Of a stretch of 64,000 nucleotides of DNA, positions 32,481-58,530 are shown piece after piece. Within the stretch, counting starts at the first letter, position 1. Each line of letters opens with the position of its first letter. The translations under genes and the position numbers were made by a program. The notes under the pieces were generated by a model, which saw only the letters and a list, made by a program, of their open reading frames with translations, searched no databases and was not told where the DNA came from. Source of the DNA: Tubulanus polymorphus (taxonomy: Eukaryota > Animalia > Nemertea); contig NC_134025.1 in assembly GCF_964204645.1 (NCBI RefSeq), forward strand, positions 12,338,001 to 12,402,000, given 5' to 3'.

Positions 32481-33489
32481 TATCGTAAATATACTCTCTC
32501 TTAACTTACGAGACAACAAACATTATTAACAAACAGCAAATATTACTTGTATTTTATGATGGAAATAACCGGTATCGCATGCAGTACGAGTAGCCATCAG
32601 ATATGTATCATTCTAAGAATATAATATTTAATGCACAACGTTCAATGTAAAATTCACCGTATAAAACTAATTCATCCTTCAACAAGATATACAAAATGTT
32701 ACGTTTGGCTTCTTACAAAACTACATTGTATCACCACCAAACCGTCTAAAGCCAACAACAATAGTAAATTTGTGTACATTTTCATATACGTGACAATGCT
32801 GATAATGTATATACTGCTTCTAAATGCATCAACAAGATGGATATTCCAAGACAAAACATCATTTCAAAGTAACTGAATCTCCTCTGTTACCGGTACACAT
32901 GTAGATCTGTAAAACCCGCATAAATTTCACCCAATACAGTTCACGTGTTCCAAAAAAAAGTGCTCGATTGAAGCGCATACATACTGGAACCGCAGAAAAA
33001 TACCATTCCAGCACATGTATGACCATTAACAAATGAAATAAAAAACAATCACTATATACGATTATATAATCAACAGAAACTTAAGAAATTTTAAAAATAT
33101 TGATACATCATTGAATATATAATATTCCAATCGAAACAATGAAAATATAATTTGTGATCTAAATTGACTTGTTACCGAATGGACAATGCCAATGATAATC
33201 GAATGCATTAGCAAGAGACAGATCCAAGAACTACAAATGAAGATCAAAAACGAAGCGAACGGTTTGAAATTCAGAAAAACAGATTTATCAAATCTTCTCA
33301 ATTGAGCAATTTATATATTACTGTAGGTAACGCTCAGTACCTTACAAGTCAACGCCTACGAAAGGTTCACCTTTCACCTACTGACTGTAACTTTTAACAT
33401 TTTAATCATTCTATATGCTCCCAATGCCTCGTTGGATAAGGCAGAACATCCACTGCACATTTGACACATAACTTGTGGTTTCACACATG

Positions 33490-33974
33490 TCAAGTTTTAC
33501 TACCAAATACGTCATCATAAGACGGTGGTGGATTAGTGTCGTGAAGGGAATAAGGAGGGGTTTCGATGTACACTTGATTGACATGACTTTCAGAAGTCGG
33601 TGATGGTAAGGTGGAAGCATTAGCCATAAAACCAGTAGGATTTGAACATCCTTCCAGATTGACATGGTCAAGATTACATGACTGCCAGAGGTCGATTCCA
33701 AATACCGGATTGACGTGACCGCTCATTGGCAGCGTCGAACCAGACAAAAGCTGAATTCTTGGCGCAGAATTGCTCGATCTCGTACTGGCAGTTAGTCGTG
33801 ATATTCCCGGCTGGCTTGGTGTGCGAATTTCGCTTGTTTCGTTGCTCAGTGGGTCGGCTATTCGCATCTGTTGACGCTGTCGTTGTAATTTGTATGATTT
33901 GTAACAGCGTCCCATGATCGTACATGTAAACACGAATGAAAACAGGATTCCAAAAATGATCGGCATCCACGTAC
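33490..33974 (-). CDS. Candidate alternative terminal exon C of the CACHD1-like gene: TM helix plus NPVF/PPSY tail
   Basis: Acceptor CCTTCTTTTCAG, phase 1; TWMPIIFGILFSFVFTCTIMG then RCYKSYK; NPVF; TPPY; PPPSYDDVF; 485 bp. Confidence 0.65.
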
Positions 33975-36816
33975 CTGAAAAGAAGGATAACATTCAAATT
34001 ACTATTGATTTCATATGCTTTTTCGTAGAAAATGAAAATCGTACTATCTATTTCAAATACATTCAAACAATTACAAATTCATTTCAGCTATTCACAATGT
34101 GATCTCTTTTTGATTTATTTGGAAATCAATTTGCATATTTACCACGATAGTCCCAGTAGCAAAATCCAGAGAGTTACATACAGTTTATACGTTGTAACAA
34201 TGAAACCCCAAAACTACTATATATTCAAAATTTCGGTACCACAACAGTAAATTTTTATTACTTAATGACAAATATCACATATGCATAGCCTATACTACCC
34301 AGTTAAATACCGGTACTGTCATGTGTATACAAATATATGAATCACACTTTAATTTATAATCTCAATAGAAAAAACATATATACATATATAACATATACAA
34401 TCTAAACAAAAAATCAACATCAACCAATTGAAGAATTCATTACTACAGAATCTTAATGGTAACACACATTTTTATCTGGACGGACTGACAATTATAAAAA
34501 AGGCATATAAATCATGGACATGTAACTTCACAAGGACAGCAATGAGTTGAGGGCTTTATAACATTTGCCTTGAACCCAACAATTTAATTCGAGTGGCAAT
34601 CGTTTCAAAATATTCAACCCATTCATCATACTATATATCCAGGGCTGCAAACCTCAGAAAACCTCAGAAAAGTACTATTGGTAACAAATTAAATTTTTCT
34701 TCAGTAACATTTCATTGATATATGAAAGAAAATGTTCAATTAATCAGTAGACATTAACAGCAAGTAACATCTTACATATTACTGTACATATCGAACAAAT
34801 TAAATCAGTATTTCTCGTTATAAAATAGTAACAAATACTCTAAATCAGGAACTCTGAACAAGCAAATTATTGTAACCCTATTGATAAATTTGTGAAAATC
34901 ATGACGCAGTATCAAATATGAAGATTTGAATCCTCATTGATAAAATACACGTAGATAACAAGATTTTGAATTAAAAATTGGTACAAAATATTTGTTCAAC
35001 CTCTTTTCACTATATCTCTACACAAAGCAAAGACCGCATAGTTTAGTGACAATTCACCTGCAGACTACATTTACTAACTATAGCAATATCCGTAATAGAG
35101 CCCAATCACAACTAATCTAGATGTTATTTTATGATAAACTCAATGATTGACTATGAATTACAACGCATCCAATTATATCATTGATCGAAATTAACAGTTA
35201 TAGAAAAGAAAATGAGACAAATTTCTTTTACCCACCGACGTTATCAAGTGCCTTCAGTTATTTTAGTAGTCTTTCAGATTATTTTTTCAATCATGAATCA
35301 TAGATCATAATTCTCCACAATGAAACGTGCTACAGGCAAATTTGCTTAATCCAGTCTAGAAACTTCTACATGTAGATTTCTGAGTAGAATATGATTTTTC
35401 ATCTGGTTTTCTGCATAATCTGAATTAATTTTACTGATCTCAAATAATCCCTGATTATTACCATAAAACCACATAATGCAGGTATCAAGCTGCCCAGTAC
35501 ACACTCCTCAGACATTCAGCTTTGTCTATCGTGATTAAACGACTTATATGGTCTGGTGAATTAAGTTATTCGTTTATTTTCGATCAAAATTGTCCGAGTT
35601 GATGTCCCGAACGCTGGACCATCTAAAAATTGCAGGAATGGTGATGATTAAATATCACATGTCTGAGGGGTGAATCCTTGCTGCAGATTATTACCTGCAT
35701 TATTCCAGTTGTTAACCTACATTATCTTTAATTATTATCTTAAGTTGTTAGATGTAAAAATATTATGTTCGAACCTTAGGTGGTACCAGTTAAACCTGAT
35801 TTCATTGGCGCAAAATGATCCAGAAGAAACAGGACATACTCACCAGCTGGTTTTACGTATTAGAAACAAGTGTAATTAGATATGAGACAATTAGTATTTC
35901 ATATGTGTGTCACATTGATTATATTGATTTAGATTAGATCGATTAAATAAATTGTCAGTGGATACATTAGATTATATTTTCATTTCTTGGATAATATGCA
36001 AGGCTTTCTTTATAAGTGATTTAAATAGAGAGTAAAAAGATTGTCAAGATGTCAATTCTGAACCCTGTGTTTTCCTATCTATGTATTTGTCGCTACTAAG
36101 TAGGCCACCGATATCGGAATAATTATTAAACTCAAAAAAATATCTGCTGATCTGGTATTTCTCGGTTAGCTTTTTCTATTTTTTGACAGGAAAAATACTT
36201 AATCGTTTAACCAAATTGAAAAATTTTTGGAGTAAAGAATTTTGGGTATAAAGTTAAGAGCAAATTGACGTAGTAGTAGCAGGCAGGTCTGGTTTGATGA
36301 AAAGCTCAAGAAACGCGTAAAAAATTGTAAATAAATAAATGCAATTAGTGCTTATTTTTACAGACATTTTTCTAAGAAATTCTTATGTACTACTACTAAA
36401 AGTGATAAAGTACCTAATAAAGATTTCATCGTATGAAAATATTCTGAATTTCTAAAATTTCAGAGTAAGTGGGTTATTAACTTGATTGATAGCGAGAGGT
36501 GTCTACTGTATTAGAAGGTGGCTATCTACTTTTCTGTTCTGTCTATAAAATACATGCTGCTATCAACGGGCCAGTTCCACAGTCGAGACATTAGATAATA
36601 AGACTTTAGATCATTTTCACCCATACTAATTAACCAATCAAACAATTATGACCATTATTAAGTTCAAGTCAGGGTAAATCATCGTGTAAACCCTAGTTTA
36701 AGGCCATTATTGGAACTTAAGCCAGTAGCCAGAAATGGGTTCATCAAATATCTTATTTGTTGTTTAGAAGCCATATATCAACATCCAGTCACTGAATTGA
36801 ACTATAGATGATTAAG

Positions 36817-36819
<3 letters not shown>

Positions 36820-36850
<31 letters not shown>
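36820..36850. repeat. (TA)n microsatellite
   Basis: About 15 TA units. Confidence 0.9.
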
Positions 36851-36852
<2 letters not shown>

Positions 36853-36915
36853 ATTTTCACTCAAAGTATTTTATTCCAGTTTTGAGTGATAAATACTTTG
36901 AACCGTGGAGCTAAG

Positions 36916-37376
36916 CTAAGGTGATTTGGTCAGATCATCGTACGTAGGAGGCAAACTGTCATCATTGGGAGACGGTGATGACATGACAAGCGAATAAGAT
37001 GGCGGGAGCGATATATCCAACTCATCGGTCATATGCAATGAATGATCTGAGATCGGAGAATCAGTATTCGTAAATGACGGATTCCAACTACCGCCGACTG
37101 ATGAATAAGTAGACACCTCCGATGCTGGTGAGATTAACATAGGCATCGGCACGTGGCGAGGCGTTTCGTATAACGATGCCAAATTAGAAGATTGATACGG
37201 GTTAGGTGTTAGCATACGACCTGGGTCGTGTGAGTTGTTGATGTGGTTATTATTGAACCGGTGACAACAAACTCTAGATAAAAAGCAAAGAAACGTGGTT
37301 AAGAGTATAGCACCCATAAATGTACTGATTCCGACCCAAATTGGGAGGGAGGACGGACAGCCAATACAAAGACCAC
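36916..37376 (-). CDS. Candidate alternative terminal exon B: TM helix plus NPSF/PPSY/PPTY tail
   Basis: Acceptor CTTCTCTTGCTTGGCTTTCAG, phase 1; LPIWVGISTFMGAILLTTFLCFL; AATAAA at 36870-36875, ~40 nt after the stop; 461 bp. Confidence 0.65.
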
Positions 37377-38106
37377 CTGAAAGCCAAGCAAGAGAAGCGT
37401 TAATACTAAGCATACGCGATAAATTCAAAACAATATGCCATCTGAGATTCAAAGCGTGGGATTCTCGAAAAACGTTTGCAGTACTTGAAAACCTTTTATG
37501 GAATTTTTATATTAGATTAATAATATAGATATTGAAAATGTGAAAGAGTCAACCGTGATCGTGCTAGTTAATCCGAATTGAAATGTGGAGAACTCAAAAA
37601 TACTGATAGCTACAGCGCACAGCTAGTCTGAGGTGGACACACTTCAAGTTGATCCGTGTTCAACAGACCGGGGAGGTTTCGCACCTGCCTGTACAGACTC
37701 AGCTTTGATCATTTTCTTCACATTTCAAAATAGGCCTCAGACCTGACTCAGTTAATGCACCTAAGTAGGATCTGTAACAGCAAGTAATTTTACCTGATGC
37801 TGCGCCTGACATAATGAGAACATTTTCCATAACTCTAATCTAGAGGTATTTCACCTTCTACATTCAAGCGTTAGGAAAAATAATGCATACATGAACTCAG
37901 ATGGATCTTTTGGGTTCCATTCAATTTGAGACAAATTAGCCATTGATCACCCGCATCAAGCAGAATACTTGACAATCCCAATTTCATTACACAGTAACCG
38001 ATTAGAGTTATATGTAGCTAATTGATATGGGTTCAGCCGATCAAAAGGAGTTAAGAATTGTTTTCATTTCCATAAAAGTTAAACTCGCGAAATCTGGTGC
38101 CAGAAA

Positions 38107-38597
38107 TCAAAACTTGGAATCATCAGGTAGATCAACATTGTTAGTCTTATCACTGATATCACTTAGATAGAATGCGCGATTGTCATGTGCATTATTATTC
38201 CACGACGCGGCTGAGTAACTAGGAGCCACCGCGACTCGCATATCTTCGAGAGCCTCTTCGTACGACGGAGGCTGATCGACAAATACGGGATTCGTCGCAT
38301 AAGCCGGGAAATGTACATTCGTATCAGAGGGAAGCATGAACCCCGAGGAGTTTGAGACGGCAATTTCCGCCGCTGCCACTGAACCATCGGTGACGTGCGA
38401 CGCACCGATACTGTTCGGATCAAAAGACGAAGTGTTTCGATGCGTGTAAATTCCTTTGCGACACGACGGACAAAACAAGCCGTTGCGTAATTTTACAATT
38501 AGAACGACAACGATGACGATAACAAAAATTCCACCCAATACGGGAAATACGATTGTCAATATATTGACATCGACGAGTCCATTTACACCTGGTGAAA
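38107..38597 (-). CDS. Terminal exon A of the CACHD1-like gene: TM helix plus NPVF/PPSY tail
   Basis: Acceptor TTTCTCTTTCAG, phase 1, matches the donor at 40153; ILTIVFPVLGGIFVIVIVVVLIV-KLR; YATNPVFVDQPPSYEEAL; 491 bp. Confidence 0.8.
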
Positions 38598-39311
38598 CTG
38601 AAAGAGAAATTATGGCGCATGCAGAATAAGGTAATGATAAAATACAATGAAACACGCTTAATCCCGATTCATCAATTTAATGTGAATATATCATCATTCA
38701 TTTCATGGTCTTCCTTTAGACAAATGCATGTAAAATATGATGTTTAATCTGGATTCCTCATATGCCAAATTAATTTCATCGTTTCCAAATGATTCAGATT
38801 AAGCGGGTTCTACTGTAATACGCTTTCATACAGCCATCCATTTATCACGTAACCACATACTCGAGGAACGAGAGATGTCGTAATGCTCAAATCCTTAACA
38901 TTAGTGTGTGTTATGTGGTAAAAAGCCTTCACATATATGCACGCACTGTTTTAGTAAATCTACATCGCCTTATCCGCTGACAAGCGGTGCAACTGGAATA
39001 TGGCATGACCGTTCCGTTGCGCTCATGTGCTGCCATCTAAACCCCCAGGTTCTCTTTGAGAATGTATACACTTTGGGGATAAATGTCAATACAGTATGGT
39101 GCAAAAGCATTTTGATCTCAGTATGCATACATGTATGATTGACCAGTGTACATCAATTAAAATGTGTACAGGGCTTGAAAATAGGACAGTATTTTGCATA
39201 CATGATAAATGGATGACCTCTATAGCCATAGAAAAAATTCCATGCAGAGGACTTCTGTTTCTTAAGGTTAATTCAAGACCATGAAAATGTGTAGAAAAAT
39301 TGAGTAAGCTT

Positions 39312-39837
39312 AAGTGGAACCTTGTTAATACGAGGTGGTCTTTTACAAAACTTGGCGTATAACAATGATTTTCGTGTCCCAGCCAAATGTAGTTAAAAAA
39401 TCAGTGTAATACGAACACGATACAAAAAATTGAAACAATGAAAATGAAATAAAACAATGAAAATTTTCAGTCGCCATGTCTCATTTCCCTAGTAAATACT
39501 TGTGGTTAATATCAAAGCTGATCGAGTGGATCACCTGTATCCTATATAGGCCTAATACATGTGTGTAACAATAACATGATATCGTGCCGAGAGTTTTATC
39601 GATCAACAAATGAATAAATTTTGAAAAAGATATCTTATATTTCGTTTTATCATATTTATTATTATTCAGAATTGTGTACATATAGGCCTACAACAAAAGG
39701 AGAAACGATCTCAGTGTACATGTGAGCGTGCTGTGAATCGATTGGCGGTAAATTTATGTTGGATTGTATGTTATGAATTCTCGTTAATACGAATAATTTT
39801 CATTGCCCCTGGTACTCGTATCAACAAGGTTCCACTG
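39312..39837. mobile_element. pogo/Tigger-like MITE
   Basis: TIR AGTGGAACCTTGTTAATACGAG / CTCGTATCAACAAGGTTCCACTG. Confidence 0.65.
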
Positions 39838-40153
39838 AAATAAGCTCTAGCTTAGGAACCTATAGGAGGGAAATACTAAGAGTCATGGCAAATAAAACTA
39901 ATAGAGACCAACTTAACCAGAAGAAACAAAGTACGAACTAAGGAAGAATCTAAGAATCCAGTCTATCGGTTAATATTTGTTATGCATGACAATGAAAAGA
40001 TGTGTACTAGCACAACAACCGAAGAGAAATAGAATTTTTAGACAAATGAAGATGCAATTGTACATAAAAGAGAACTTAACTTTAAACAAAGGGGTGAAGA
40101 ATGCAGCCAAGAGAAAGAGCCAAGTAGAGCTAAGATAAGTTTACCACACTTAC

Positions 40154-40305
40154 TGGGTGCTGTTGTAGTAGTGTAACCATTGGAGTCTGGTGCAACCTGA
40201 ATCCCAAATGGACATTCATTCTGACTCGAACAATATGGTTTCTGCAGACGAAATGAGTTCTTATCGCGTTTACACCAACTGCAGCCAAGCGTGTTAGCAC
40301 AAGAC
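40154..40305 (-). CDS. CACHD1: CACHD1-like exon (Cys-rich juxtamembrane region)
   Basis: SCANTLGCSWCKRDKNSFRLQKPYCSSQNECPFG resembles the CACHD1 C.WC...KPYC....EC motif; donor A|GTAAGT, phase 1. Confidence 0.88.
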
Positions 40306-40665
40306 CTTAAAGGAATTGATAAAATTTCATAAATGCTAGAAAAACGATGAGAAATATTTATCATGTAGACCAGTTGTTGTAAGGCCAGCTCTTGCCAGCA
40401 GAGCCTATACAGTAGCAAGTCTAGAAACAGTAATCCAAAAGAACAGTGGCAAAAAAAGTTTTGGAGCCCTCCCCAAAAATAAGTATTCCAGGTGCACTTT
40501 TGGCCAACATGAAGTCACACCAACACAGAACTCTATGACTGTGAACTATGGCACTGGAGGAGAGACACCATTCAAGTTCTCCTCATTTTCATGTTCATGA
40601 GGATTAGGTAATTGTTAGTTTGACGTGATTGGGTTTGCATGCTGTTGCAATGTACACATACTCAC

Positions 40666-40797
40666 CTTTCATCAAGGGATGATGTGCAATCACCTTGAAA
40701 GCATTTCAAAAGTAATTTCGCAGCAGCCACCTCAGACTGTACCGCCGTTGTTGGATTTATTTTTGGTGCAGCCGGAATGCATGGTGGATAAGGATTC
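40666..40797 (-). CDS. CACHD1: CACHD1-like exon
   Basis: NPYPPCIPAAPK...KCFQGDCTSSLDE; TTTCAG / GTGAGT; phase 2 to 2. Confidence 0.85.
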
Positions 40798-40926
40798 CTG
40801 AAACAAAGGACATCACATTTGAAGCCACTAATTATGTCGAGAGATTTGTAAAGATGTATGGCACTAAAATAGAATATATGAGTTTGAAAAGGCTAAATTA
40901 TTGAATGAAAAAAAAACTTGACTTAC

Positions 40927-41033
40927 TCTCCAGGAATGTAATGATCTTGACAGTACTGATACATTGCAGCGGAATAACAAGGGCATTCACAATACGACAA
41001 CCTCTTTGGTTGTAAGCACTTGTATTCTTTGAG
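40927..41033 (-). CDS. CACHD1: CACHD1-like exon
   Basis: LKEYKCLQPKRLSYCECPCYSAAMYQYC (CECPC motif); TTTCAG / GTAAGT; phase 0 to 2. Confidence 0.88.
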
Positions 41034-41546
41034 CTGAAATTCAAAAGTGATATTGAAATTCATATGAGTTTTCAGAAGTTACCTTTAATGTAGTGAATAT
41101 GTATTGCATTGCTATGTACGCAAAATAACATTAACAATTTCTATATATGTAGGCATATATGAATTTCGATTCTTAAACCAGATTAGATCAGTTTAGTACG
41201 AGATTGGTGATAATGCCAAGACCTTGGGAAGTTATTTTATAGTTGGCTAGAATTCGACAACATAATTTGTCATAACGTGATTAGTTATGTCTGGGAAAAA
41301 AATTCAAGCCATTCTTGGGGATTATACTAATTATTCAAAATCATTGAAATTAAATTCACTTAGAAGCATCTTCAAAAATGGTTTTGAAAGAAAACTGGAG
41401 TAGAGTCTGATTTTCTCTGCATACTTCATACGGGAAATCATACAGCGCCAAGAAATCTGTGACATACTGTAGGCTAAATGATTTGGTAAATAATTTGGTA
41501 TATTCTACATGAAAAAAATTAGGCGGATGCAATGAACTTAACTGAC

Positions 41547-41684
41547 CTTTGGAGCACATTCACAAGAATGATACTGCGGTGAGACATTTGCAACAACTAT
41601 AAATACATTGCTGGTTGGCACTGTATGAATTTGAAACAGCGGCACGCCAGTTGAAATGTAATACTCTTCCTTTGTAATTGATAC
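41547..41684 (-). CDS. CACHD1: CACHD1-like exon
   Basis: VSITKEEYY...VPTSNVFIVVANVSPQYHSCECAPK; AAG acceptor, GTCAGT donor; 138 bp, phase 0 to 0. Confidence 0.8.
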
Positions 41685-41946
41685 CTTCAAAAACAATATA
41701 TATGCACTAGATCAGGGGCCAGATTTTTCAAAGGAGTTTCAAAAGTCACACATCTAAACATTGTTTAGCATTGGACATTGATTAGCATTATCACCTCCTT
41801 TCCCCAGCAGCACTATTCTCGGTCGAGCAATTAGACTACTTCCCATTGTTGCGGCATCATTCATTTTTCCATTAAAAACCCAAATTTTTGTGATGCACAG
41901 AAACTTACACTTGGTGCCCTGTTATGAGAGCTGTGTTATTAAAAAA

Positions 41947-44900
41947 TTACAATTTTTGGAACTAAAATTTGTATTTCCGAGTAGTACTTACCCTTTCCTA
42001 TGGTTTTTGCCAATATTTTCTAAATTTGGATTGATCGCCAATGGTTTTTCTATACGACCCGGCCCTGCGGTATTGCATTTAGCCACCGGCGAAATCCGCC
42101 ATCTTTTTACGTCATAGCAGACCAAAAAAAAACAGCTATGCGGGGCAGGTGGGCGGGATTCCCACCATAGGAAAGGGTAAGTACTACTCGGAAATACAAA
42201 TTTTAGTTCCAAAAATTGTAATATTTCCGTCGAGTACTGTACCCTTTCCTATGGTTTTTGCTAGACTAGCCTAGCACAAGGATGGTGGGAAAGGTAGATA
42301 GAAAAACCACTGCTCTAACGCAAGGTAAGAGGGAAAAAGAGAGCACTTACCCAAGCACGGAATGGAGCACTGTAGTACAGGGAAGACCGGTTGGCCACAG
42401 TGAGTCCGTCCAGCTCAGGGGCCCCCCCAGAATTTTTGCGAAATTAATACTTGCAGATATGAGCCCAAATTATGTACAAGGATACACCCCCTGTGATCCT
42501 GATAATGCAACATAAATATTCTACACTAAAGGGTCCGATCGGAAAGAACGGACACCTTGAGCCATGACAACAGGACCAAGTGAAGCTAATGAGCCTAACT
42601 GGCCTGAAACATCCCGTAAATAAAATGACGTGAATGTCGATGGAGAATTCCAAAAGGCAGCCCGACAGACTTCCTCCAACGGAGCACCCGAAAAGGCTGC
42701 GCAGGAAGTAGCCATAGACCTCACTTGATGAGAAACCACTCCCTCCGAGGAAAGATTCTCCTTCAATAAAATGTCCTTGATCAGTGAAGAGATCCATCGG
42801 GCCACTGTGTCCCGCGAAATATCACCCTTTAGGTGATCCAGCAGCGGAATAAATAACCGCTCCCGTGAACCCCTCCGTGAAGCAGAGCGATCTAAATAGA
42901 AACACAAAGCCCGCACAGGACATAAAGTCCTGTCCGGGATGCCCGGTTCCACTCGATGTTTTAGGGCTTCAATTCGCCATTGATGCCCAATCGAGCCTGG
43001 TCGTTGGTTCTTTGCCAAAAATTCCAAAGCAGGCCGCAGCGAAACAAATTCCTTCGCTGGCCCAAAGACAATATGACCTTGTCGGACTGAAAGCGCATGA
43101 ATCTCAGAGCGACGGGCCGAGCAAGCCAAGAACTGCAAAAATACAGTCTTTTTTGACAAATTTGCAAATGACGCTGCCGAAAGATGTTCAAATGGAGCCT
43201 CCATTAACTTCTTCAAAATTACAGACAGATCCCATGGCGGAACTGTCCTTGGTAACCGAGGCCGGGAAATAGAAAACCCTGCAACCAGCTGGGATATCCG
43301 ATGATCCCCTGCTACATTTGGCCATCCAGAAGCACGCAATGTATGAGAAATCGCGGAGCGGTAACCTTTAATAGTTATGACCTGCAAACCTTTTACTACA
43401 AATAGGTGCAGTAAAAAATCTGCCAATTGAGCTACAGAGGGTGAGCATGGATCAATTTCCCCTGCTGTGTCCATTTGGCATCGTAAATGGTACTTGTTGA
43501 TGCCCGCTTAGATCCCGCCATAAAGGAGGCAGCCTGTTCTGAAAAGCCTGAAGCTGACAAGGATTGCTGGACAATGGCCAGGCGAGCAGATTTAACCACT
43601 GGCTGTTTGGATGATGCCGAAAGTTCCCCTGAGACAGAAGCAATGGGAAATTCGGAAGAATCCTGGGGTTGTCGCACAGTAGGTTGAGAAGTGGTAGGAA
43701 CCATTTCTGAGCCGGCCAACATGGTGCTACCAGAACTATGTTGCAATTGACTGATCTCTCTATATGATCCAGTAAGCGCGGCAGGACTGGTGTGGGCGGG
43801 AACGCATACGCATGCATCCCCGACCAGTCCAGAGAGAAGGCATCGACCCCCCACGCTTCCGCGTCTAGAAACGGGGACACAAACAGAGGACACCTCCGAT
43901 TGAACCGGGTGGCAAACAGATCCAGCAGCGGATTGCCGAACATGCCCCGAACCCGATCGGCTACTTCTTGGTGGAGAACCCATTCTGTCCCAATAGCCTG
44001 ACCTCGACGAGACAGAGCATCGGCCATCACGTTCCTTTTCCCTGCTAAATGTGCCACAGTCAGGGACACGCCCTTTGTCTGGCACCAAAGAAGAATTTGG
44101 CCGACAGACCTGTGAGGGTTTCTGAGTGAGTGCCCCCTTGGTTCTGAAGGTAAGCCCTCACTGTTGATTGTCTGTGGCTAACCAAACGTGGTGGCCCTCC
44201 ACTCTCCTGTGAAAGAACTTCAGGGCCTTCCACACGGCCAGCATTTCTAGGAAATTTATGTGGTTGGTGGCCTCGTAGCGAGACCATCTCCCGGCTTTGA
44301 CTCGGTTCTCCAGATGTGCCCCCCATCCTTGGTGACTGGCATCCGTGAATACACGAACTGGAGCCTCTAACGGGGCAAGTGACACCCCGAGCCGAAGATT
44401 CGTAGTTGCCGCCCACCACTGAAGATCCGGACTTAGATCGGTTGGAGGTACGGGAATCAAGGCCTTCCAGTTGCCCTTCGACTGAGACCAGAAGACCTTC
44501 CAATATTGTTGCAAGCGCCTGCTTCTGAGGCGGCCTAAGGGCACCACCAGACCCATGGAGCTGATGGAGCCTAGAAGCCGTGACCAGTAACGAGCTGTTC
44601 TCGGGGTTGTGGACACTCCCGCTACAGCTTCTTGAAGTTTGGCTACTCGAGCCATAGACGGAAATACTTTGCCGATTCGGAGATCGAAGTCCATGCCGAG
44701 ATAAGTGAACTGTTGGGCCGGCGTCAACTGAGATTTTTCCCCGTTTACGCGGAACCCTAGCTGATGGACTAAGTCCAAGACTGAGGTCATTGCCTCCCGA
44801 CATTCCTGAGCCGAATTCGCGACTATTAACCAGTCGTCGAGGTAAACGAACAGTCGAACACCCCTTGACTGAAGTACCTTCTGAACTGACTTGACCAACT

Positions 44901-47900
44901 TGGTGAAAACCCACGGGGCCGTACTGAGGCCAAATGGAAGAGACCTGAATTGGAACTGGCGGCCTTTCCACTCCATCCTGAGAAATCGCCAAGATTTTGG
45001 GTGAATTGGAACCTGAAAGTAAGCATCTTTCAGGCCCATTGACCCGGACGGAGCCCTTGAATCACGTCCTTGGGCTTGGTCATCCGGAACCTTGGAATGT
45101 CTAGGTGCCGATTGAGGGATGACAGATCTATTACTGTCCGTTGACCCCCTGTGGCCTTTGGTACCATGAATATTCAAGAAAACCAGCCGGGAGAAGTTTC
45201 GTTGCAAACTGGTTCTATCGCTCCCTTCTCGGCCAATTCCTTGAGAGCTTAAGGTCTCCTGACCTGGTTTTGGCCGCATGTCGGGAGGTGACCTCATCAG
45301 GCGCGGTCGCCTTAGGAAACGGAGACGGTAGCCCCGAGAGACGACCCGGGAGGGCCAACCGTCTCCAAAAAGGTCGGACCAGTGGGTTGCTCCCTGCTGC
45401 AGACAACCTCCCACTGGTCCCAAGAATTCATTTGAGCCCCTTTTTTGAGCCTTCCCCTTGCCTCGATACGAACTGGAACTGTTACGACCGGACGAGGCTT
45501 GACACGATTGTTGAAGTTGCGCGCTAGTTCTCCAACCGGCATCCGAAGCCGCCTGAGAAAGCGCTGAAGTTTGAGATGGTCCTGTTTGCATCCGTGCCAA
45601 ACCTTGCGCCGCCGGCGTCGGACCAGAACACTTTTTCCACGGAGTTCGGGGATTGGACTTGGCCTGAACCTCCCGAATCTTTCTCAGCTCTGCGGAAACC
45701 GGAGCGCACCAACCGGAGAAGAGATGTGAAGACGTCCCCAATGGGGCTCTCAGCAAAGCATTGGACACCATATCCGGTAGACGAGTTTTGGAACTGGAGT
45801 CTATCACTGACTGACGGGAGGCTAACACAAGATTAGCCTGACCCCGAACCGACAACGGAATTACATGCGAAACAGACCGAGCCAAAGATTGGATAATCCG
45901 GTCCATTCCCTCCAGTTTTAGGGCAACTGACTCTGGGTCGAAGCCCGCATGAACGGCGGTGTGAGTCTCGCGAAGCTCACCCGTCAACACCTTAAGTGCC
46001 ATATCTTGAAACGAACCAACCCTGGTAAGATTGTCCAGGATTGACGTTATGACCACCAAACCGGACTTAGGCAAACGAATACCCGACTGTGCTGTAACAG
46101 TATCCGGGCTGATCAAAGTATAATCAGCATCCAGGCAGTTATGACTGTGCGCCTATAGTTGGATCGGTTGAACTAAAATATTTCCCAGATTTCATTCCCC
46201 GTTCTGGAGGGGGAAATGAAAATGTTCTAGGCCGACATTCACCCCATAATTGCGTATCCAATCGAGCCCATTCTCTCGAAACCGCTGACGATTTTCGTAA
46301 AACGTTAAGATCGGTGTCCGGAGGGCGATAAGCTTCCATTGACTCACCGACCAGAGGAGCTGCTGTGGGCTTAGCGCGAGTTGCCCCGTGCTTGACAAAG
46401 AACTCACTTATCATCGCTCTAAATGGCATGTCCCCCGCTGGTTCGGATAAAACTGGACGGGACGGAGATACATTGCGAGCCAGGGAAGCCCCCATCGTCT
46501 GGGGCAACCCACAATTGCTCGCGACAGGAACGACCCCAGAAGGAATTGCCGCTTCTGGGACCGGATCCTCATTGAAATCAGACCCTACCGCAGCATCCAG
46601 GAATTCAGAGTCAGAATTCCGAAGAACTGAGTGGGCTGGCGAACTTCTAACCGGACAATCAGGAATAGGCTTACCTGTTGTAGAGGTTGCAGCGACTTGT
46701 TGCGACGAAGATAACAAGTTTAAAATTTTCTCTTCAAATACATGGAAATCCTTCTGAGTCAGGTATTTTCCAGTATCCCGACGATCATGCCGACTTCGGT
46801 GACGGTCCCTCGAACGGGATCGAGACCTACTAGAAGAATCGCTTTCATCGCTAACCGCCGTCGACGAACGATGAGAAGACCGACGGCGAAACTTCCGACA
46901 ATAACGATCGTAGTCCCTCTCGCGATCAAACCTTGATCTGCGAGAAGGAGATCTTGCTCGTTTATTACGCTCACGGCGTCTAAATCTAGTGGGAGAGCGA
47001 GCTCTATCCCCGGAGCGACGATCAGAATCAGACGATGAACGTACCGGATGTTTTGAACCGGACGACGTCTGGACCGAACCGGTGCCCGAACCGGACCGGT
47101 GCCCGAACCGAACTGATGCCCGACCCGGACCGGTACCGACCGAACCGGTGCGGGCCGTTCGCGACTACCGCGGCGCGCGCTTTGTTCCGAACATGTAGTC
47201 TGAACCGGCCGAACCGGCCGAACGACCAGAGACCGGTGAATGACCGGAGACCGGTGCCGGTGAACCAGCGTTCCTCCCCGGTGAACGGAGTTGGGAAGCC
47301 GATCGTACCTGAACGACTGGCGACCGCTCCGCTTTACGATAAGAAACAGGATTAGAAACGTCGGTTGGCACATCGGCCGAAACCGACGAATCCCTGCTAT
47401 TTCGACGACGATCTCTTAGTTTAAGAGCCTTATCGGCCCGAAGCCAAAGGTCCTCGGACCACACCTCGCAAATCTTGCAAGGATTGCTCCTTGCACATAT
47501 TTGACCGGATTTGCGCCTGCACGACGCACACGAATCGTGGTTGTCCCAGGCGCCAAACAAATGCCCGCATCCCTCCCTGCCACGATGTTGACCCTTAGGA
47601 GGGGGTGGCATAATTATCCTATTACAAATCAAAACAATTCAATTCAATCAAATTATATTTGTAAATAAAATTCTTATGGAAAAATAGAAACCAGGGATAA
47701 CCCCCAAACCGAACGGACTCACCGTTATGAGAGTGAAAACTCCCTAATATCCTAATTCCCAGATTTTTACGGCGAAAAAATCCAACGCGTTCTACTGCGA
47801 GAACGCCAAGAAAAAAGATGGCGGATTTCGCCGGTGGCTAAATGCAATACCGCAGGGCCGGGTCGTATAGAAAAACCATTGGCGATCAATCCAAATTTAG

Positions 47901-47949
47901 AAAATATTGGCAAAAACCATAGGAAAGGGTACAGTACTCGACGGAAATA
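41947..47949 (-). mobile_element. DIRS1-like retrotransposon, copy 2 (multiple small deletions; defective)
   Basis: Same ITRs and ICR (42164-42261); gag, pol and YR fragmented by deletions near 43467, 44167, 45035, 45432 and 46148. Confidence 0.95.
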
Positions 47950-48539
47950 AATTAGTGTCCGTTATATGAATCAAATCTTGAAGCTGAAAATTCTCAATAC
48001 CATGTTATTATCGTTAGCATATTCATGATACGAATAAACGCTACTAGAAATGCAGTTGTTTTTGCCAGACAACAATGGCTTCAAGTCGGCCATCTCAATT
48101 CTGATTGGGCAGTTTTACCAAGGGCAGATATATGAATAAACCAAATATCGTCTTGTGTCTGATTGACCCAATTTTTGTCAAAGCGTTTTCAAAACTTCCC
48201 ATGTAAACTTTAAAAATGCACAAAAGTGTTGATTTTGTGTGAAATGGCCAAAAGTGGGCCACCTTGATTCCCATCGGACCAAGTTTTGGGCCACACAAAC
48301 CTAATATCAATATATAGACCATACATCAAAGTATATTGAAAACTAGATTCTGTCTACAGATGGAAGAACAGACAGCAGAAAAGTGAACGCATTAGACTTA
48401 CGTAAGTACCAAGTAGGCTAAAAACCCACTACAGTGGAACTTCATCATAATGTATTCTGATATGACGATTTATCAGTAAAAAATAACTGTGACCAAAATG
48501 AGAAAATTTGTGAATTTTTGGAAATTCATATTCATTTAC

Positions 48540-48635
48540 CTTCCAGCTGTGTTTAACAGCAACGTCACTTATATTTAAACAGCTTGAGCGAGTCATGATT
48601 CCAGCAAGGATCAACGTGGTTGCAATAGATGGTTC
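48540..48635 (-). CDS. CACHD1: CACHD1-like exon
   Basis: EPSIATTLILAGIMTRSSCLNISDVAVKHSWK continues HITSK|EP as in CACHD1; TAG / GTAAAT; 96 bp. Confidence 0.85.
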
Positions 48636-48726
48636 CTATGATGAAAATCAAACAACAAATTGTTAAGAACCACAAAGCAACCATTTTTTTTGGCCTGCTT
48701 GGGATTGATTAATCTAATATTTCTAA

Positions 48727-49411
48727 AGTCCCATTCACAGAACTAGTTTAGACCAGTCTAAATGGTTTGCACCAGGTCCGGTCCAAATTTGGACTGGACC
48801 GAATCTGAGTGTGCGTTCACACACGCTAAATTGGCAACAAATTGTTATGACTGGGCCCTCAAGATGTCGACATAAGTATTTTACCCTGAAATTTATATCT
48901 AGTCCCTGGCAGTTTTTTATTTGAACAATTCTGATCATTACAGTTTATCATATATCTGGACACATCAATCAATGATAGATTCTAGGTAATTTTCGGAACA
49001 GTTAAAACAGATATAAACATGTACTCTTCGAGCAACACATGCTGAGATTTTAAGATATGTAATACATGTAATCCGTTAGCATTTACATCAATTTTATGAA
49101 ATCTAAAAACTATATGAAATCAGCTTGATGAGGAATTGGTGACATGTTTGATACGATTAAATTTATATCCCAGAGTATGATTTAGACTGGATCTGGTACC
49201 AGTTTCTGTCCACAGACACAGTCCGTTTTAGTCTGTTCAAAAATTTGGACTGGACCTGGTTCGCTCTTTTCGGTGGGTAGAAATTAGACCAGTCTAAAAT
49301 GGACCAGATCAATTTGGAACAGAAGTTTTTGCTCATGTGAACACTTGGTACGGTCTTGACTGGAATGGACCAAATTTAGACCAGTCTAAATAACGGCGTG
49401 ATAATGCGTCT
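48727..49411. mobile_element. Degenerate MITE rich in TTTAGACCAGTCTAAA / GGACTGGACC motifs
   Basis: Palindromic TTTAGAC-CA-GTCTAAA near both ends and internally. Confidence 0.45.
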
Positions 49412-50074
49412 TAAGAGTTATGCAACTATTTTGTGTGGCAATGTGTGTAAATTCATGAAACTTATAAAGGGTTCGTAATGAAATTGGTTAAGTTACATGT
49501 ATTTATATATGTCATACTTTTTATAGATCTAAAATAATTTTGTATTATAATGTGGTACAGTCATTGTTTGGTCAACTTCCATGTTGTTAAATTAAGTTGG
49601 TCTGTCATTCATTCTGTCGCTGCAGTGTTTTCATTATGAGTGGAATTTTGCTCCAGCTGCAGCTGGACGTACCACCTACCAAGAAGAATTCTGCAGGAAC
49701 CCAACGAACCACAATTGATCGGAAAACTCTTCTCTGAATATTGGGAATTCATGCGGTCACATGTGCATATTATGATACAAAGTATACATATAGGTTCAAC
49801 TTCAATTTTCCTCTCCCCTGTTAGGGATAAGGAAACAATATACTGGTAATATATTTTGCCAAGTGAAGATTTGTCATTTTGAGTTACAGCATATGCTTGA
49901 AGCGTATTCAACTGAGCAATCTGATTGGACAGAAATGCTACATTGGTGTAACGGTATACTACCCCCAGTAGTTATTTGAACATCAGCATGCAGTAACAAA
50001 ATAATCTTCATCCAATAGTGTAATTGTCATCAACAAATACTAAAGATTTTACGAATACAATGTACAAGTTTTAC

Positions 50075-50180
50075 CTTGGAAGTGATATGTACGTCTTCTA
50101 CAATGGGTAGATTTGTTGTTCTAGCTTCGATATAATCGGGATGTATAACAATAAAGCCACTGTCATCAATGACAAAACAA
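50075..50180 (-). CDS. CACHD1: CACHD1-like exon (Cache domain)
   Basis: CFVIDDSGFIVIHPDYIEA...HITSK; TTTTCAG / GTAAAA; phase 2 to 0. Confidence 0.9.
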
Positions 50181-51222
50181 CTGAAAACAAATACCGCTAA
50201 CATTAGGTAAAAATAGGAATAAATCAAATATCGGGGAGATGTAGGGTGGGCAGTTCAGGATGGTTGAATTCTGCAACAAAATAATCAAAATCGTTTCTTA
50301 ATAATTTGGATTTGTTTAATCAAAGGATAACGGAACTCAAAGGATAAGACTTTTCTGTAAAAAAAATGTATACAGGGTACAGTTTCCCGAAGCTAACAAG
50401 AAAAATACCTAGTATCCTCCATCGCTATGGCTAATATAAAAAGGATACCAGGGTTTATTGTGTTAATTCAGTGACCATATGTGCAGACTAATGCCTTTGG
50501 AGTATGGATTTTACCAGCGAAAAATGTAAGGGCAAATTTTTACGATCACAGACGTTTTATAATGAAGGGAACTTAGATTTCTTCATTTTTGAGTATTTTC
50601 CACATTAAATCTTGGAAGGACTACGGAAAAGAGTGAAAACTGCAGTGGATTGCATTCAAATGATGGGAATGATTAGATCGAAAATTAAGATGGAAATGTG
50701 AAGAAATTATAGACAGGTTATCAAGAAAAAATTGTTTTAAATAATTATGATAAAAACAAGACTTTTTTCAACAATGATGTTTATGGCGGAATTTCTGAGG
50801 GAAAACCGTGATCCAAGTACAATGTTATGAAAAGCATGCATCCCCTAGAACCAAGAAATTCTTATGAAAATCTGTCAATTTTCAATCCATCAATCACCTC
50901 CACGATGCACTCTACTGTATAAACATGTAGCAATCACACACAGCTGCATGATTGATCATGAATATATGTAGTAGTGGGTTTTCCCCAATGACTCGAATAG
51001 ACACCTGCCTTACAACATAGGCCTACCAGGATTGAAAGAAATCAACATGATTTATATACCGTCCATTGTGTGAACTCGGAAGCTGAACGATCAATTACAT
51101 AGATTCACTGCCCCTCTCCCAATTTCATTGCCTTTTTCAAAAATTCACAGCTATCCATGGACGTGAATTGATTTTTTTCAGTTCACTGCTATTCACTGCT
51201 CGCAAAAATGAAGTGAGACTAT

Positions 51223-51544
51223 AGCCGCGATAACACAGAGACCATTTGGCCAGGGCCAAATTGCAAGGATCAGGCTCGAGCCAAATTTGGCCCATGCCTA
51301 ATTAGAGAGCGCGTTCACACGCAAACCATTCACTCGATGCTAAACAATGCTCAAAGCGAAGTGGGTCATTTCCGGTACCAGTTGCAATTTAGATGCAATC
51401 GTTTGTCTCGTGCTAAAATTTGGCTCGGGCCTGGTCCAACGTTTTTGGTTGGGCCAAATTTGGCCATGGCCAAACAGGCTCGGGCCCATTTGTCACCCCT
51501 GAGAACAGTTTTTCCGGGCCAAAAATGCTTGTGTGATCGCGGCT
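51223..51544. mobile_element. PIF/Harbinger-type MITE (uninterrupted relative of 9114-16698)
   Basis: TIR AGCCGCGAT(A/C)ACAC, 3-bp TSD TAT. Confidence 0.85.
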
Positions 51545-51679
51545 TATATGCAACGTCTTCAGAATATTCAGTTGGCTTGATGAAAGGGCAGAAATAGTTT
51601 ATGTTCAACTCCAGAATGATATGATGAAAGCAGTACTATCATGGGGGGTTTATTCTTAGGCCAGTCAGGCATGTTGAAA

Positions 51680-52040
51680 GGTAGAACCTCCAAATCAATA
51701 GGATTCTTCCCTACATGGTCTCACAACATGCCATAAAATCACAAATGATTCTATCTGTTGGTGTAGCCTGTATCCTGCTCACAAGCATGTTCGCCAAACA
51801 CAGATGGCCACCAGTCAGCCATCTTGAGAGGTGGTACTTCCGTAATCAATAAGGTAATTCCCTACATGGTTTGACATCATGTCATTAAGTCTCACAAGAT
51901 TCTATCTGCTGGTTCAGCCTGCATCCTATTCACAATGATGTTTGACAAACAAAGATAGCCGCCAATCTGCCATCTAGAAAGGTGGAACTTCCAAAATCAA
52001 TAGGGTTCTTCCCTACATGGTTTGACATCATGACATGAAA
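51680..52040. repeat. Degenerate ~150-bp tandem repeat (2.5 units)
   Basis: TTCCCTACATGGT recurs at ~51707, ~51859 and ~52009. Confidence 0.65.
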
Positions 52041-52653
52041 TATATACATGTCAAATATGTACATGATGCTTAAAATTACAATTTTTGGAACTAAAATTTG
52101 TATTTCCGAGTAGTACTTACCCTTTCCTATGGTTTTTGCCAATATTTTCTAAATTTGGATTTATCGCCAATGGTTTTTCTATACGACCCGGCCCTGCGGT
52201 ATTGCATTTAGCCACCGGCGAAATCCGCCATCTTTTTTCGTCATAGCAGACCAATAAAAAAAAACCAGCTATGCGGGGCAGGTGGGCGGGATTCCCACCA
52301 TAGGAAAGGGTAAGTACTACTCGGAAATACAAATTTTAGTTCCAAAAATTGTAATATTTCCGTCGAGTACTGTACCCTTTCCTATGGTTTTTGCTAGACT
52401 AGCCTAGCACAAGGATGGTGGGAAAGGTAGATAGAAAAACCACCGCTCAAACGCAAGGTAAGAGGGAAAAAGAGAGCACTTACCCAAGCACGGAATGGAG
52501 CACTGTAGCACAGGGAAGACCGGTTGGCCACAGTGAGTCCGTCCAGCTCAGGGCCCCCCCCCAGAATTTTGCGAAATTAATACTTGCAGATATGAGCCCA
52601 AACTATGTACAAGGATACACCCCCTGTGATCCTGATAATGCTACATAAATATT

Positions 52654-54240
52654 CTACACTAAAGGGTCCGATCGGAAAGAACGGACACCTTGAGCCATGA
52701 CAACAGGACCAAGTGAAGCTAATGAGCCTAACTGGCCTGAAACATCCCGTAAATAAAATGACGTGAATGTCGACGGTGAATTCCAAAAGGCGGCCCGACA
52801 GACTTCCTCCAACGGAGCACCCGAAAAGGCTGCGCAGGAAGTAGCCATAGACCTCACTTGATGAGAAACGACTCCCTCCGAGGAAAGATTCTCCTTCAAT
52901 AAAATGTCCTTGATCATTGAAGAGACCCATCGGGCTACTGTGTCCCGCGAAATATCACCCTTTAGGTGATCCAGCAGCGGAATAAATAACCGCTCCCATG
53001 AACCCCTCCGTGAAGCAGAGCGATCTAAATAGAAACACAACGCCCGCACAGGACATAAAGTCCTGTCCGGGATGCCCGGTTCCACTCGATGTTTTAGGGC
53101 TTCAATTCGCCATTGACGCCCAACCGAGCCTGGTCGTTGGTTCTTTGCCAAAAATTCCAAAGCAGGCCGCAGCGAAACAAATTCATTCGCTGGCCCAAAG
53201 ACAATGTGACCTTGTCGGACTGAAAGCGCATGAATCTCAGAGCGACGGGCCGAGCAAGCCAAGAACAGCGAAAATACAGTCTTTTTTGACAAATTTGCAA
53301 AAGACGCTGCCGAAAGAGGTTCAAATGGAGCCTCCATTAACTTCTTCAAAATTACAGACAGATCCCATGGTGGAACTGTCCTTGTTACCCGAGGCCGGGA
53401 AATAGAAAACCCAGCAACCAGCTGGGATATCCGATGATCCCCTGCTACATTTGGCCATCCAGAAGCACGCAATGTATGAGAAATCGCGGAGCGGTAACCT
53501 TTAATAGTTATGACCTGTAAACCTTTTGCTACAAATAGGTGCAGTAAAAAATCTGCCAATTGAGCTACAGAGGGTGAGCATGGATCAATTTCCCCTGCAG
53601 CACACCAATCCGCAAAATGACTCCATTTGGCATCGTAAATGGTACTTGTCGATGGCCGCTTAGATCCTGCGATAAAGGAGGCAGCCTGTTCTGAAAAGCC
53701 TGAAGCTGACAAGGATCGCTGGACAATGGCCAGGCGAGCAGATTTAACCACTGGCTGTTTGGATGATGCCGAAAGATCCCCTGAGACAGAAGCGATGGGA
53801 AATTCGGAAGAATCCTGGGGTTGTCGCACAGTAGGTTGAGAAGTGGTAGGAACCATTTCTGAGCCGGCCAACATGGTGCTACCAGAACTATGTTGCAATT
53901 GACTGATCTCTCTATTTGATCCAGTAAGCGCGGCAGGACTGGTGTGGGCGGGAACGCATACGCATGCATCCCCGACCAGTCCAGAGAGAAGGCATCGACC
54001 CCCCACGCTTCCGCGTCTGGAAACGGGGACACAAACAGAGGACACCTCCGATTGAACCGGGTGGCAAACAGATCCAGCAGCGGATTGCCAAAAATGCCCC
54101 GAACCCGATCGGCTACTTCTTGGTGGAGAACCCATTCTGTCGCAATAGCCTGACCTCGACGAGACAGAGCATCGGCCATCACGTTCCTTTTCCCTGCTAA
54201 ATGTGCCACAGTCAGGGACACGCCCTTTGTCTGGCACCAA
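52654..54240 (-). CDS. DIRS copy 3 tyrosine recombinase (true start uncertain)
   Basis: SARRSEIHAL, LCPVRAL, HQVRSMATS, AFWNSPSTFTSFYLRD. Confidence 0.88.
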   Translation of the reverse strand: MVPDKGRVPDCGTFSREKERDGRCSVSSRSGYCDRMGSPPRSSRSGSGHFWQSAAGSVCHPVQSEVSSVCVPVSRRGSVGGRCLLSGLVGDACVCVPAHTSPAALTGSNREISQLQHSSGSTMLAGSEMVPTTSQPTVRQPQDSSEFPIASVSGDLSASSKQPVVKSARLAIVQRSLSASGFSEQAASFIAGSKRPSTSTIYDAKWSHFADWCAAGEIDPCSPSVAQLADFLLHLFVAKGLQVITIKGYRSAISHTLRASGWPNVAGDHRISQLVAGFSISRPRVTRTVPPWDLSVILKKLMEAPFEPLSAASFANLSKKTVFSLFLACSARRSEIHALSVRQGHIVFGPANEFVSLRPALEFLAKNQRPGSVGRQWRIEALKHRVEPGIPDRTLCPVRALCFYLDRSASRRGSWERLFIPLLDHLKGDISRDTVARWVSSMIKDILLKENLSSEGVVSHQVRSMATSCAAFSGAPLEEVCRAAFWNSPSTFTSFYLRDVSGQLGSLASLGPVVMAQGVRSFRSDPLV

Positions 54241-55735
54241 AGAAGAATTTTGGCCGACAGACCTGTGAGGGTTTCTGAGTGAGTGCCCCCTTGGTTCTGA
54301 AGGTAAGCCCTCACTGTTGATTGTCTGTGGCTAACCAAACGTGGTGGCCCTCCACTCTCCTGTGAAAGAACTTCAGGGCCTTCCACACGGCCAGCATTTC
54401 TAGGAAATTTATGTGGTTGGTGGCCTCGTAGCGAGACCATTTCCCGGCTTTGACTCGGTTCTCCAGATGTGCCCCCCAACCTTGGTGACTTGCATCCATG
54501 AATACACGAACTGGAGCCTCTAACGGGGCTAGTGACACCCCGAGCCGAAGATTCGTAGTGGCCGCCCACCACTGAAGATCCGGACTTAGATCGGTTGGAG
54601 GTACGGGAATCAAGGCCTCCCAGTTGCCCTTCGACTGAGACCAGAAGACCTTCCAATATTGTTGCAAGCGCCTGCTTCTGAGGCGGCCTAAGGGCACCAC
54701 CAGACCCATGGAGCTGATGGAGCCTAGAAGCCGTGACCAGTAACGAGCTGTTCTCGGGGTTGTGGACACTCCCGCTACAGCTTCTTGAAGTTTGGCCACT
54801 CGAACCATAGACGGAAAGACTTTGCCGATTCGGAGATCGAAGTCCATGCCGAGATAAGTGAACTGTTGGGCCGGCGTCAACTGAGATTTTTCCCTGTTTA
54901 CGCGGAACCCTAGCTGATGGACTAAGTCCAAGACTGAGGTCATTGCCTCCCGACATTCCTGAGCCGAATTCGCGACTATTAACCAGTCGTCGAGGTAAAC
55001 GAACAGTCGAACACCCCTTGACTGAAGTACCTTCTGAACTGACTTGACCAACTTGGTGAAAACCCACGGGGCCGTACTGAGGCCAAATGGAAGAGACCTG
55101 AATTGGAACTGGCGGCCTTTCCACTTTATCCTGAGAAATCGCCGAGATTTTAGGTGAATTGGAACCTGAAAGTAAGCATCTTTCAGGTCCAATGAAGCCG
55201 CCCATTGACCCGGACGGAGCCCTTGAATCACGTCCTTGGGCTTGGTCATCCTGAACCTTGGAATGTCTAGGTGCCGATTGAGGGATGACAGATCTATCAC
55301 TGTCCGTTGACCCCCTGTGGCCTTTGGTACCATGAATATTCGAGAAAACCAGCCGGGAGAAGTTTCGTTGCAAACTGGTTCTATCGCTCCCTTCTCTGCC
55401 AGTTCCTTGAGAGCCGGAGAGATTAAGGCCTCCTGACCTGGTTTTGGCCGCATGTCGGGAGGTGACCTCATCAGGCGCGGTCGCCTTAGGAAACGGAGAC
55501 GGTAGCCCCGAGAGACGACCCGGGAGGGCCAACCGTCTCCAAAGAGGTCGGACCAGTGGGTTGCTGCCTGCTGCAGACAACCTCCCACTGGTCCCAAGAA
55601 TTCATTTCGAGTTTTTCCGAAAGGAAGAGCCCCTTTTTGGAGCCTTCCCCTTGCCTCGATACGAACCGGAACTGTTACGACCGGACGAGGCTTGACACGA
55701 TTGTTGAAGTTGCGCGCTAGTTCTCCAATCGGCAT
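53565..55735 (-). pseudogene. DIRS copy 3 pol (RT-RNaseH-MT) with a 1-nt deletion at ~54320
   Basis: RT frame 54311-55735 ends ATDNQQ*; STVRAYL...ADALSR and the MT domain continue in another frame. Confidence 0.85.
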
Positions 55736-58383: not shown

Positions 58384-58530
58384 CTGGAAATTTAAACAAA
58401 AATAAGATACAAGTTAAGAAATAATTAGCGCATTGCAACAGAAATCTGGTAGTAGGTCTGCTTTATGCTCTTATCATCCTGCCTTATAAGTTGAAGAAAA
58501 CATACGAAAAAACAGAATATGTTAACTTAC

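Follow-up and report, generated by a model that had tools for sequence, protein, structure and literature searches.

The window analyzed here, a 64,000-nucleotide (nt) stretch of the genome of the ribbon worm Tubulanus polymorphus (contig NC_134025.1, positions 12,338,001 to 12,402,000), carries on its minus strand a gene of the CACHD1 family. The ectodomain of this gene ends in a single phase-1 splice donor that is followed by three open reading frames (ORFs), termed A, B, and C, each encoding a transmembrane (TM) helix and a tail with NPxF and PPxY motifs. The gene anatomy is real and unusual; the use of B and C is unproven, and the original prediction that the three are interchangeable last exons is weakened by the RNA seen. 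We see an even chance that A is the default and that B and C are alternative last exons, rarely or tissue-specifically chosen, that lie in the long 3' region of A. The elements concerned are the following, all on the minus strand.

40148..40153: common phase-1 donor GTAAGT behind the last ectodomain exon (40305-40154), placed by the 38597/40154 joint with CT..AC ends in run X2
38107..38597 (491 bp): exon A, default last exon, with TM helix, NPVF, PPSYEEAL, and stop
36916..37376 (461 bp): ORF B, candidate alternative last exon, with TM helix, NPSF, PPSY, and PPTYDDL
36870..36875: AATAAA, 41 nt past the stop of B, the first canonical hexamer downstream of A
33490..33974 (485 bp): ORF C, candidate alternative last exon, with TM helix, NPVF, and PPSYDDV
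33401..33406: ATTAAA, 84 nt past the stop of C

Three anchor-plus-tail reading frames behind one donor

The coordinates, lengths, acceptors, phase, helices, motifs, and individual stops that had been predicted for A, B, and C were all confirmed. Each is preceded by a TTTCAG acceptor and is open in phase 1 up to its own stop, and the order of the elements is the same in all three, namely, membrane helix, NPxF, and PPxY; at least two TM-plus-tail ORFs stand behind one donor and in its phase. Exon A encodes 162 residues, with its best 19-residue Kyte-Doolittle (KD) window (3.3) starting at residue 15, NPVF at 102, and PPSY at 109. The corresponding values are 152 residues, a KD window of 2.07 from residue 14, NPSF98, PPSY124, and PPTY142 for B and 160 residues, a KD window of 2.05 from residue 3, NPVF88, and PPSY149 for C. 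Both B and C are in the phase of the donor at 40154, which would occur by chance in 1 of 9 cases, and their acceptors are located 2 to 13 residues ahead of the helix, as in A.

When AG sites were scored with a matrix built from the 13 acceptors of the ectodomain exons, a training set so small that the ranks are crude, the acceptors of C and B came first and fifth among 362 sites, and that of exon A came 102nd. The scores of B (7.1) and C (11.3), against 2.1 to 10.4 for the 13 true acceptors in a leave-one-out analysis, bear out the claim that these two acceptors are strong. Donor scores in the stretch from A to C were at most 7.1, donor ranks being rough because one border in the donor set is off by a base. 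The GC content is 45 to 46% in A, B, and C versus 30 to 38% in the spacers, and the CpG observed/expected ratio is 1.65 in A, 1.15 in B, and 1.14 in C versus 0.72 in the ectodomain exons; these CpG ratios could be explained by amino acid composition or by low methylation.

Three poly(A) sites had also been expected. The hexamers behind B and C agree with this expectation, which is rendered doubtful by the stretch between the stop of A and B, where neither AATAAA nor ATTAAA occurs and only variant hexamers were found; RNA-derived contigs cannot show RNA ends. A search from 40153 to 16700 for additional cassettes, decayed ones included, gave just three unrelated motif matches. The three ORFs also share one genomic reading frame (38595, 37374, and 33972, at spacings of 1221 and 3402 nt), a coincidence expected in 1 of 9 cases. 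Stop codon readthrough from A to B to C was considered and ruled out, the common genomic frame being closed by stops between the ORFs.

B and C are far beyond what chance would give. Within the 6353 nt after the stop of A, YAG-started phase-1 ORFs of at least 140 amino acids (aa) were counted, the length cut and the motifs having been picked after the ORFs were seen, so that the test is post hoc. Two such ORFs were observed, B and C, both with a TM helix, NPx[FY], and PPxY. One such ORF arose in 25 of 2000 block shuffles and in 13 of 2000 Markov simulations, whereas two such ORFs, or all of the features, were obtained in none of the runs of either null model. The control DNA of the window (76,412 bases) contained one such ORF, devoid of any feature, and both motifs appeared together in 0.14% (A), 0.57% (B), and 0.14% (C) of 100,000 shuffles of the tail residues. 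That the two frames are open merely by chance, or stem from faulty assembly, is therefore very improbable. Protein expression of either is not demonstrated, and the motif test is post hoc, but the outcome of the simulations and the fact that an independent run, X2, gives the same sequence through B and C largely refute this explanation.

Observations that bear on the use of B and C

Contigs of four of the five runs listed (X2, X3, X4, and X5) were compared with the window. X5, the sole run from a second study, contributed one record, in a repeat. The coverage of X3 and X4 extends patchily into introns, and both are probably DNA-derived. The kind of run X2 is unrecorded, but its spliced joints lead us to take it as RNA-derived, and it is the sole informative sample. 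Of the 23 joints listed, 15 were inspected; rare variants are lost from contigs, which also carry no information on strand or RNA ends. In an X2 contig of 4741 nt, four ectodomain exons are joined at GT-AG borders, followed by the junction from 40154 to 38597, and from there the same contig runs on uninterrupted as far as 36875, taking in A, the spacer, and the whole of B, which is unspliced. A second X2 contig of 5042 nt runs unspliced from 36794 to beyond 32000, through C, and the two contigs meet at a (TA)n run (36808-36862). A single 3' untranslated region (UTR) of about 6.4 kb behind A is therefore likely. The depths of the two contigs differ (22 against 76.7), but no conclusion is drawn from this step, as parts of a gene cannot be ranked by contig depth.

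31754..38106, minus strand: region downstream of the stop of A, unspliced in X2 via two contigs, with coverage below 32000 extrapolated from contig size

Taken together, the transcript records, a deletion, and the database searches set out in this section contain much that speaks against B and C as alternative last exons. Among the joints inspected in this one informative sample, there is no splice into B or C, and the X2 contigs are unbroken at the acceptors 37376 and 33974. Both RefSeq isoforms of the gene (2 of 2) splice via the A junction only. The RefSeq annotation caught a second, frameshifting donor yet no B or C junction: RefSeq isoform X2 (a name unrelated to run X2) uses the earlier donor 40694, changes frame, and reaches a stop four residues into exon A (FHQV, stop), and its product, having no membrane anchor, is likely secreted or degraded.

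One contig of run X3 does not contain C.

33490..34052, no strand assigned: 563-bp stretch skipped by one X3 contig, comprising all of C and its acceptor (X3 contig joint)

This contig, at a depth of 24.3, joins 33489 to 34053, with 169 and 353 letters on either side and no other letters. The ends of the skipped stretch share TTGA microhomologies and are not GT-AG on either strand, pointing to a deletion allele. C appears to be dispensable on at least one haplotype. In run X2, which bears the same sample label as X3, C is intact, and no such joint is among those listed, which is not fully explained.

Two further differences concern exon A. An X2 contig has one extra base at 38246, which the contigs of X3 and X4 lack at this position; the insertion, seen in one contig only and possibly an error, would shorten the A product to 125 of its 162 residues, NPVF and PPSY being retained. 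A synonymous change at 38116 is present in X2 and X3.

With 40154 to 38597 as the sole junction seen, B and C covered unspliced in X2, RefSeq confined to A, and an X3 contig without C, the three ORFs cannot be called interchangeable. B and C are not major forms in the X2 sample, with which rare or tissue-restricted use is compatible. As to the outcome that was to speak against the prediction altogether, only the A junction exists in the data seen, which is one half of it; the other half does not hold, since contigs do cover B and C, and no splicing of either from a separate first exon was seen.

The same records bear on the possibility that B and C are relics, that is, terminal exons of the past that had diverged when still in use, before A supplanted them, and that today lie untranslated in its 3' UTR, headed for loss. 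The exclusive A junction in contigs and RefSeq, the deletion of C in run X3, and the fact that no protein record exists for B or C are in keeping with it, as is the stretch between A and B, which has no canonical poly(A) hexamer, so that A transcripts would run over B. However, the ORFs, acceptors, motifs, and downstream hexamers are all intact on the haplotype of the window, and within B and C no substitutions or gaps are listed for the X2 contigs. Silencing of both would need to be very recent, and we regard this explanation as doubtful, though deserving consideration.

Database comparisons gave little to place B and C. For ORF B, a search of 1.84 billion representatives gave nothing related, the one match being unrelated (E 4e-4), ORF C had no match in any of 16 candidates of 88 to 280 aa, and none of three ATG-started forms of B and C was present in the protein collection. 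The tails of six homologues (a Logan protein and those of Owenia, Nematostella, Corticium, Tegillarca, and Sycon, which are 32 to 36% identical) are unrelated to A, B, and C, and NPxF or PPxY motifs were not found in these six tails save for one PPAY. The homologue clusters contained no alternative tails, Corticium X1 being judged by length only, and the two Owenia forms differ exclusively in the ectodomain. Docking and selector RNA pairing around the three acceptors was at the level of the control in this single species, the best shared duplex (-19.3 kcal/mol) being equaled or exceeded by 16 of 30 control window pairs.

As to origin, no DNA match was found among A, B, and C. At the protein level, with 500 shuffles each, the B-C global similarity had a p of 0.006, and local similarity gave p values of 0.09 (A-B), 0.016 (A-C), and 0.04 (B-C); pairwise BLASTP of the three gave E values of 0.31, 0.033, and 0.023. 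The similarity of A to B and to C is marginal, a further point on the unfavorable side. Of the exon duplication that had been proposed, the common architecture and motif order, along with the marginal protein similarity, offer weak support. For B and C, an origin by duplication is plausible; for A, it is unproven.

An alternative that we consider unlikely is that B and C are separate genes for small type III membrane adaptors, of the Commissureless, PRRG, Shisa/CYYR1, or TMEM52-like kind, with first exons or ATGs of their own, with A as a possible third unit of the kind, recruited as the tail of the CACHD1-like protein. In the ESM Atlas, the look-alike clusters of C are TMEM52 (0.91), MLANA (0.90), and PRR7 (0.86), although the family is flagged as probably wrong (4 of 10 agree). 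In-frame ATGs exist for B (37413) and for C (33993 and 33966), and a possible 12-codon phase-1 first exon ends at 37794. The elevated CpG ratio of B and C relative to the ectodomain exons and the homologue tails devoid of the NPxF/PPxY set also agree with such an origin. Nevertheless, the X2 contigs cross 37794, 37376, 35844, and 33974 unspliced, the donor at 37794 is only 12th among the candidate donors, and the three ATG contexts are weak, with a purine at -3 in none. No standalone protein record exists. Moreover, exon A, which surely belongs to the large gene, shows these features as well, namely, the highest of the CpG ratios and a weak TMEM52 Pfam match (E 0.86), so that these are no mark of independence. 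Trans-splicing of a spliced leader onto B and C out of a polycistronic RNA, a process attributed to nemerteans, was also considered, and it was dropped as the literature search gave no support. A term search of PMC7986045 had 0 occurrences of four nemertean names. Readings other than those named here have, in our estimate, a very small probability.

Proposed mechanism

The strongest argument for B and C as alternative last exons is that two frames that have diverged beyond alignment are both still open, each retaining an intact acceptor, helix, motif set, and hexamer, whereas independent starts look poor. Since B and C are still open despite having no DNA similarity to A or to each other, coding selection probably acted on them until at least recently. 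In the ESM Atlas, C resembles a real protein (recognition 2494), and LAMP2 offers a precedent for the design. The presence of B on the same RNA-derived contig as ectodomain exons shows that the precursor reaches the acceptor of B, and the hexamers past B and C, with none of canonical form between A and B, fit a precursor that runs past A and exposes three acceptors.

Under this reading, three in-phase acceptors would compete for the one ectodomain donor. First-come scanning would lead to exon A, and in some cells a regulated skipping of the A acceptor would yield ectodomain-B or ectodomain-C proteins; a B or C form might end at the hexamer just past its own stop. NPxF motifs are linked to adaptors of the PTB or FERM type. 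The extended PY motifs (PPSYEEAL, PPTYDDL, and PPSYDDV) would recruit Nedd4-family ligases in the manner of Commissureless and PRRG4, and the choice of exon would set the speed at which the protein and its partners are internalized. That scanning alone can explain how a common donor chooses among acceptors, without RNA structure, is stated in a section of Pan et al. (PMC6191721).

A broader scenario, which is speculative and in our judgment rather improbable as a whole, is that the gene acquired Nedd4-adaptor tails of the Commissureless/Shisa type that are switched by cell type and that turn one receptor-binding ectodomain into several sorting devices, which would determine how long Wnt receptors or calcium channels stay at the cell surface. 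It would place the cassettes in a 3' UTR, involve a presence/absence polymorphism for C, and have the anchorless RefSeq isoform X2 as a fourth output.

The CACHD1-like gene and its ectodomain

The assignment of the gene to the CACHD1 family holds, given the label of its cluster, the match to vertebrate CACHD1, and its VWA and dCache domains. The largest ectodomain exon is 100% identical to one cluster, annotated for Tubulanus polymorphus as "VWFA and cache domain-containing protein 1-like", which has two members, XP_074645925.1 (isoform X1, 1208 aa) and XP_074645932.1 (isoform X2, 1040 aa). The translation of 14 minus-strand exons in the window, from 63376 to 38107, is the exact C-terminal part of XP_074645925.1; the 5' part of the gene is located outside the window.

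40154..63376, minus strand: 13 ectodomain exons of the VWA/Cache (CACHD1-family) gene, from the RefSeq translation match and the VWA and dCache domains
63376-62976, 62680-62581, 62326-62164, and 60594-60455, minus strand: ectodomain exons 1 to 4 in the window
58929-58754 (GC donor), 58641-58531, and 58383-58261, minus strand: ectodomain exons 5 to 7
50180-50075, 48635-48540, and 41684-41547, minus strand: ectodomain exons 8 to 10
41033-40927, 40797-40666, and 40305-40154, minus strand: ectodomain exons 11 to 13

The exon at 58929-58754 is followed by a GCAAGT donor, and the agreement of the translation with the RefSeq protein confirms this GC-AG intron. Pfam identified VWA_N, VWA_2, dCache_1, and MCP-like_PDC_1 in XP_074645925.1. 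This protein matched vertebrate CACHD1 (PDB 8S7C) over residues 17 to 1031 with an E value of 1.1e-130 and alpha2delta-1 over residues 151 to 576 with a best E value of 7e-26, and by these alignments it is far closer to CACHD1 than to alpha2delta-1. The eight other matches had 23 to 38% identity. The isoform A protein has a single TM helix followed by a tail of about 130 residues, which corresponds to the CACHD1-type topology. Its MIDAS, the metal ion-dependent adhesion site, is of the canonical DxSxS form (D214-M-S-I-S), DMSIS being aligned with DHGAS of 8S7C. Because this site is unlike the mammalian DxGxS, we use the label CACHD1-like and do not claim orthologue status.

Other features of the window

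Three copies of a 6-kb retroelement, about 96% identical, are located at 41931-48000, 52072-58194, and 10845-16521, with reverse transcriptase and RNase H matches and inverted ends; two of them lie in introns of the CACHD1-like gene. The last ORF of the element is recombinase-like and has no Pfam match, and a short piece is present at 9243-9558. From its layout, we take it to be a DIRS-type element. The last coding exon of SAP18 is found at 8581-8857 on the minus strand (Pfam PF06487, E 9e-19), and a reverse transcriptase fragment in two frames, presumably like a long interspersed nuclear element (LINE), at 26508-28003 on the same strand (RVT_1, E 1e-12). A tandem array with units of about 30 bases was noted by eye at 23390-24330. 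An open frame of 114 codons at 222-563 (minus strand) has a hydrophobic start and no Pfam match.

Significance and comparison with known systems

What the cytoplasmic tail of CACHD1 does is still largely open, and a series of three tails, if true, would be a natural experiment on tail-controlled trafficking; it would also imply that automatic annotation misses entire coding exons within long 3' UTRs. If, in turn, B and C are silent, the locus would represent a snapshot of terminal-exon turnover. No report of alternative terminal exons in CACHD1 or alpha2delta genes was found in the literature searched, most subscription journals being outside it.

Vertebrate CACHD1, a regulator of calcium channels and Wnt receptors, shares with the ribbon worm protein the VWA and dCache ectodomain over the aligned residues 17 to 1031. 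As described in passages of PMC6527056 and PMC7615972, it has a single TM helix and a long cytoplasmic tail, and the same holds for the ribbon worm protein. It differs in the MIDAS, for which a passage of PMC6527056 gives the variant DxGxS in the human protein, versus the canonical DMSIS of Tubulanus. Passages of PMC7615972 describe the tail as unstructured and report that the ectodomain alone dampened Wnt signalling.

Commissureless, PRRG4, and CYYR1/Shisa resemble the Tubulanus ORFs in combining a single TM helix with an extended PY motif, and the motif of Comm, GLPSYDEAL, of the Commissureless/PRRG4 type, is described in part of PMC5578492 as a ligand of Nedd4 WW domains. However, these are short standalone proteins, whereas A is fused to an ectodomain of 1000 residues, and no homology was seen beyond the motif.

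Drosophila PGRP-LC swaps its outer recognition domain and not anchor plus tail. Along with CG42235 and Pip, it has a 3' variable region in which a common 5' part is combined with tandem 3' cassettes, as outlined in a section of Pan et al. (PMC6191721). In these genes competing RNA pairings are used, whereas in Tubulanus none stood above the control.

A close parallel is LAMP2, the tails of which are short and recognizably alike, unlike those of A, B, and C in Tubulanus, which have about 130 residues and are barely alignable. In LAMP2A, LAMP2B, and LAMP2C, a swappable TM helix and tail is provided by the alternative exon 9, and the Tubulanus gene would work likewise. According to a passage of PMC8873216, these three isoforms of one gene differ in their TM and cytosolic domains, and one of them has very low levels across most tissues. 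Every LAMP2 form is established as an mRNA; in Tubulanus, this holds for A only. The swappable anchor-plus-tail design is already known, and the Tubulanus locus, judged by its anatomy, may be regarded as a candidate rather than a proven member of the LAMP2-type class.

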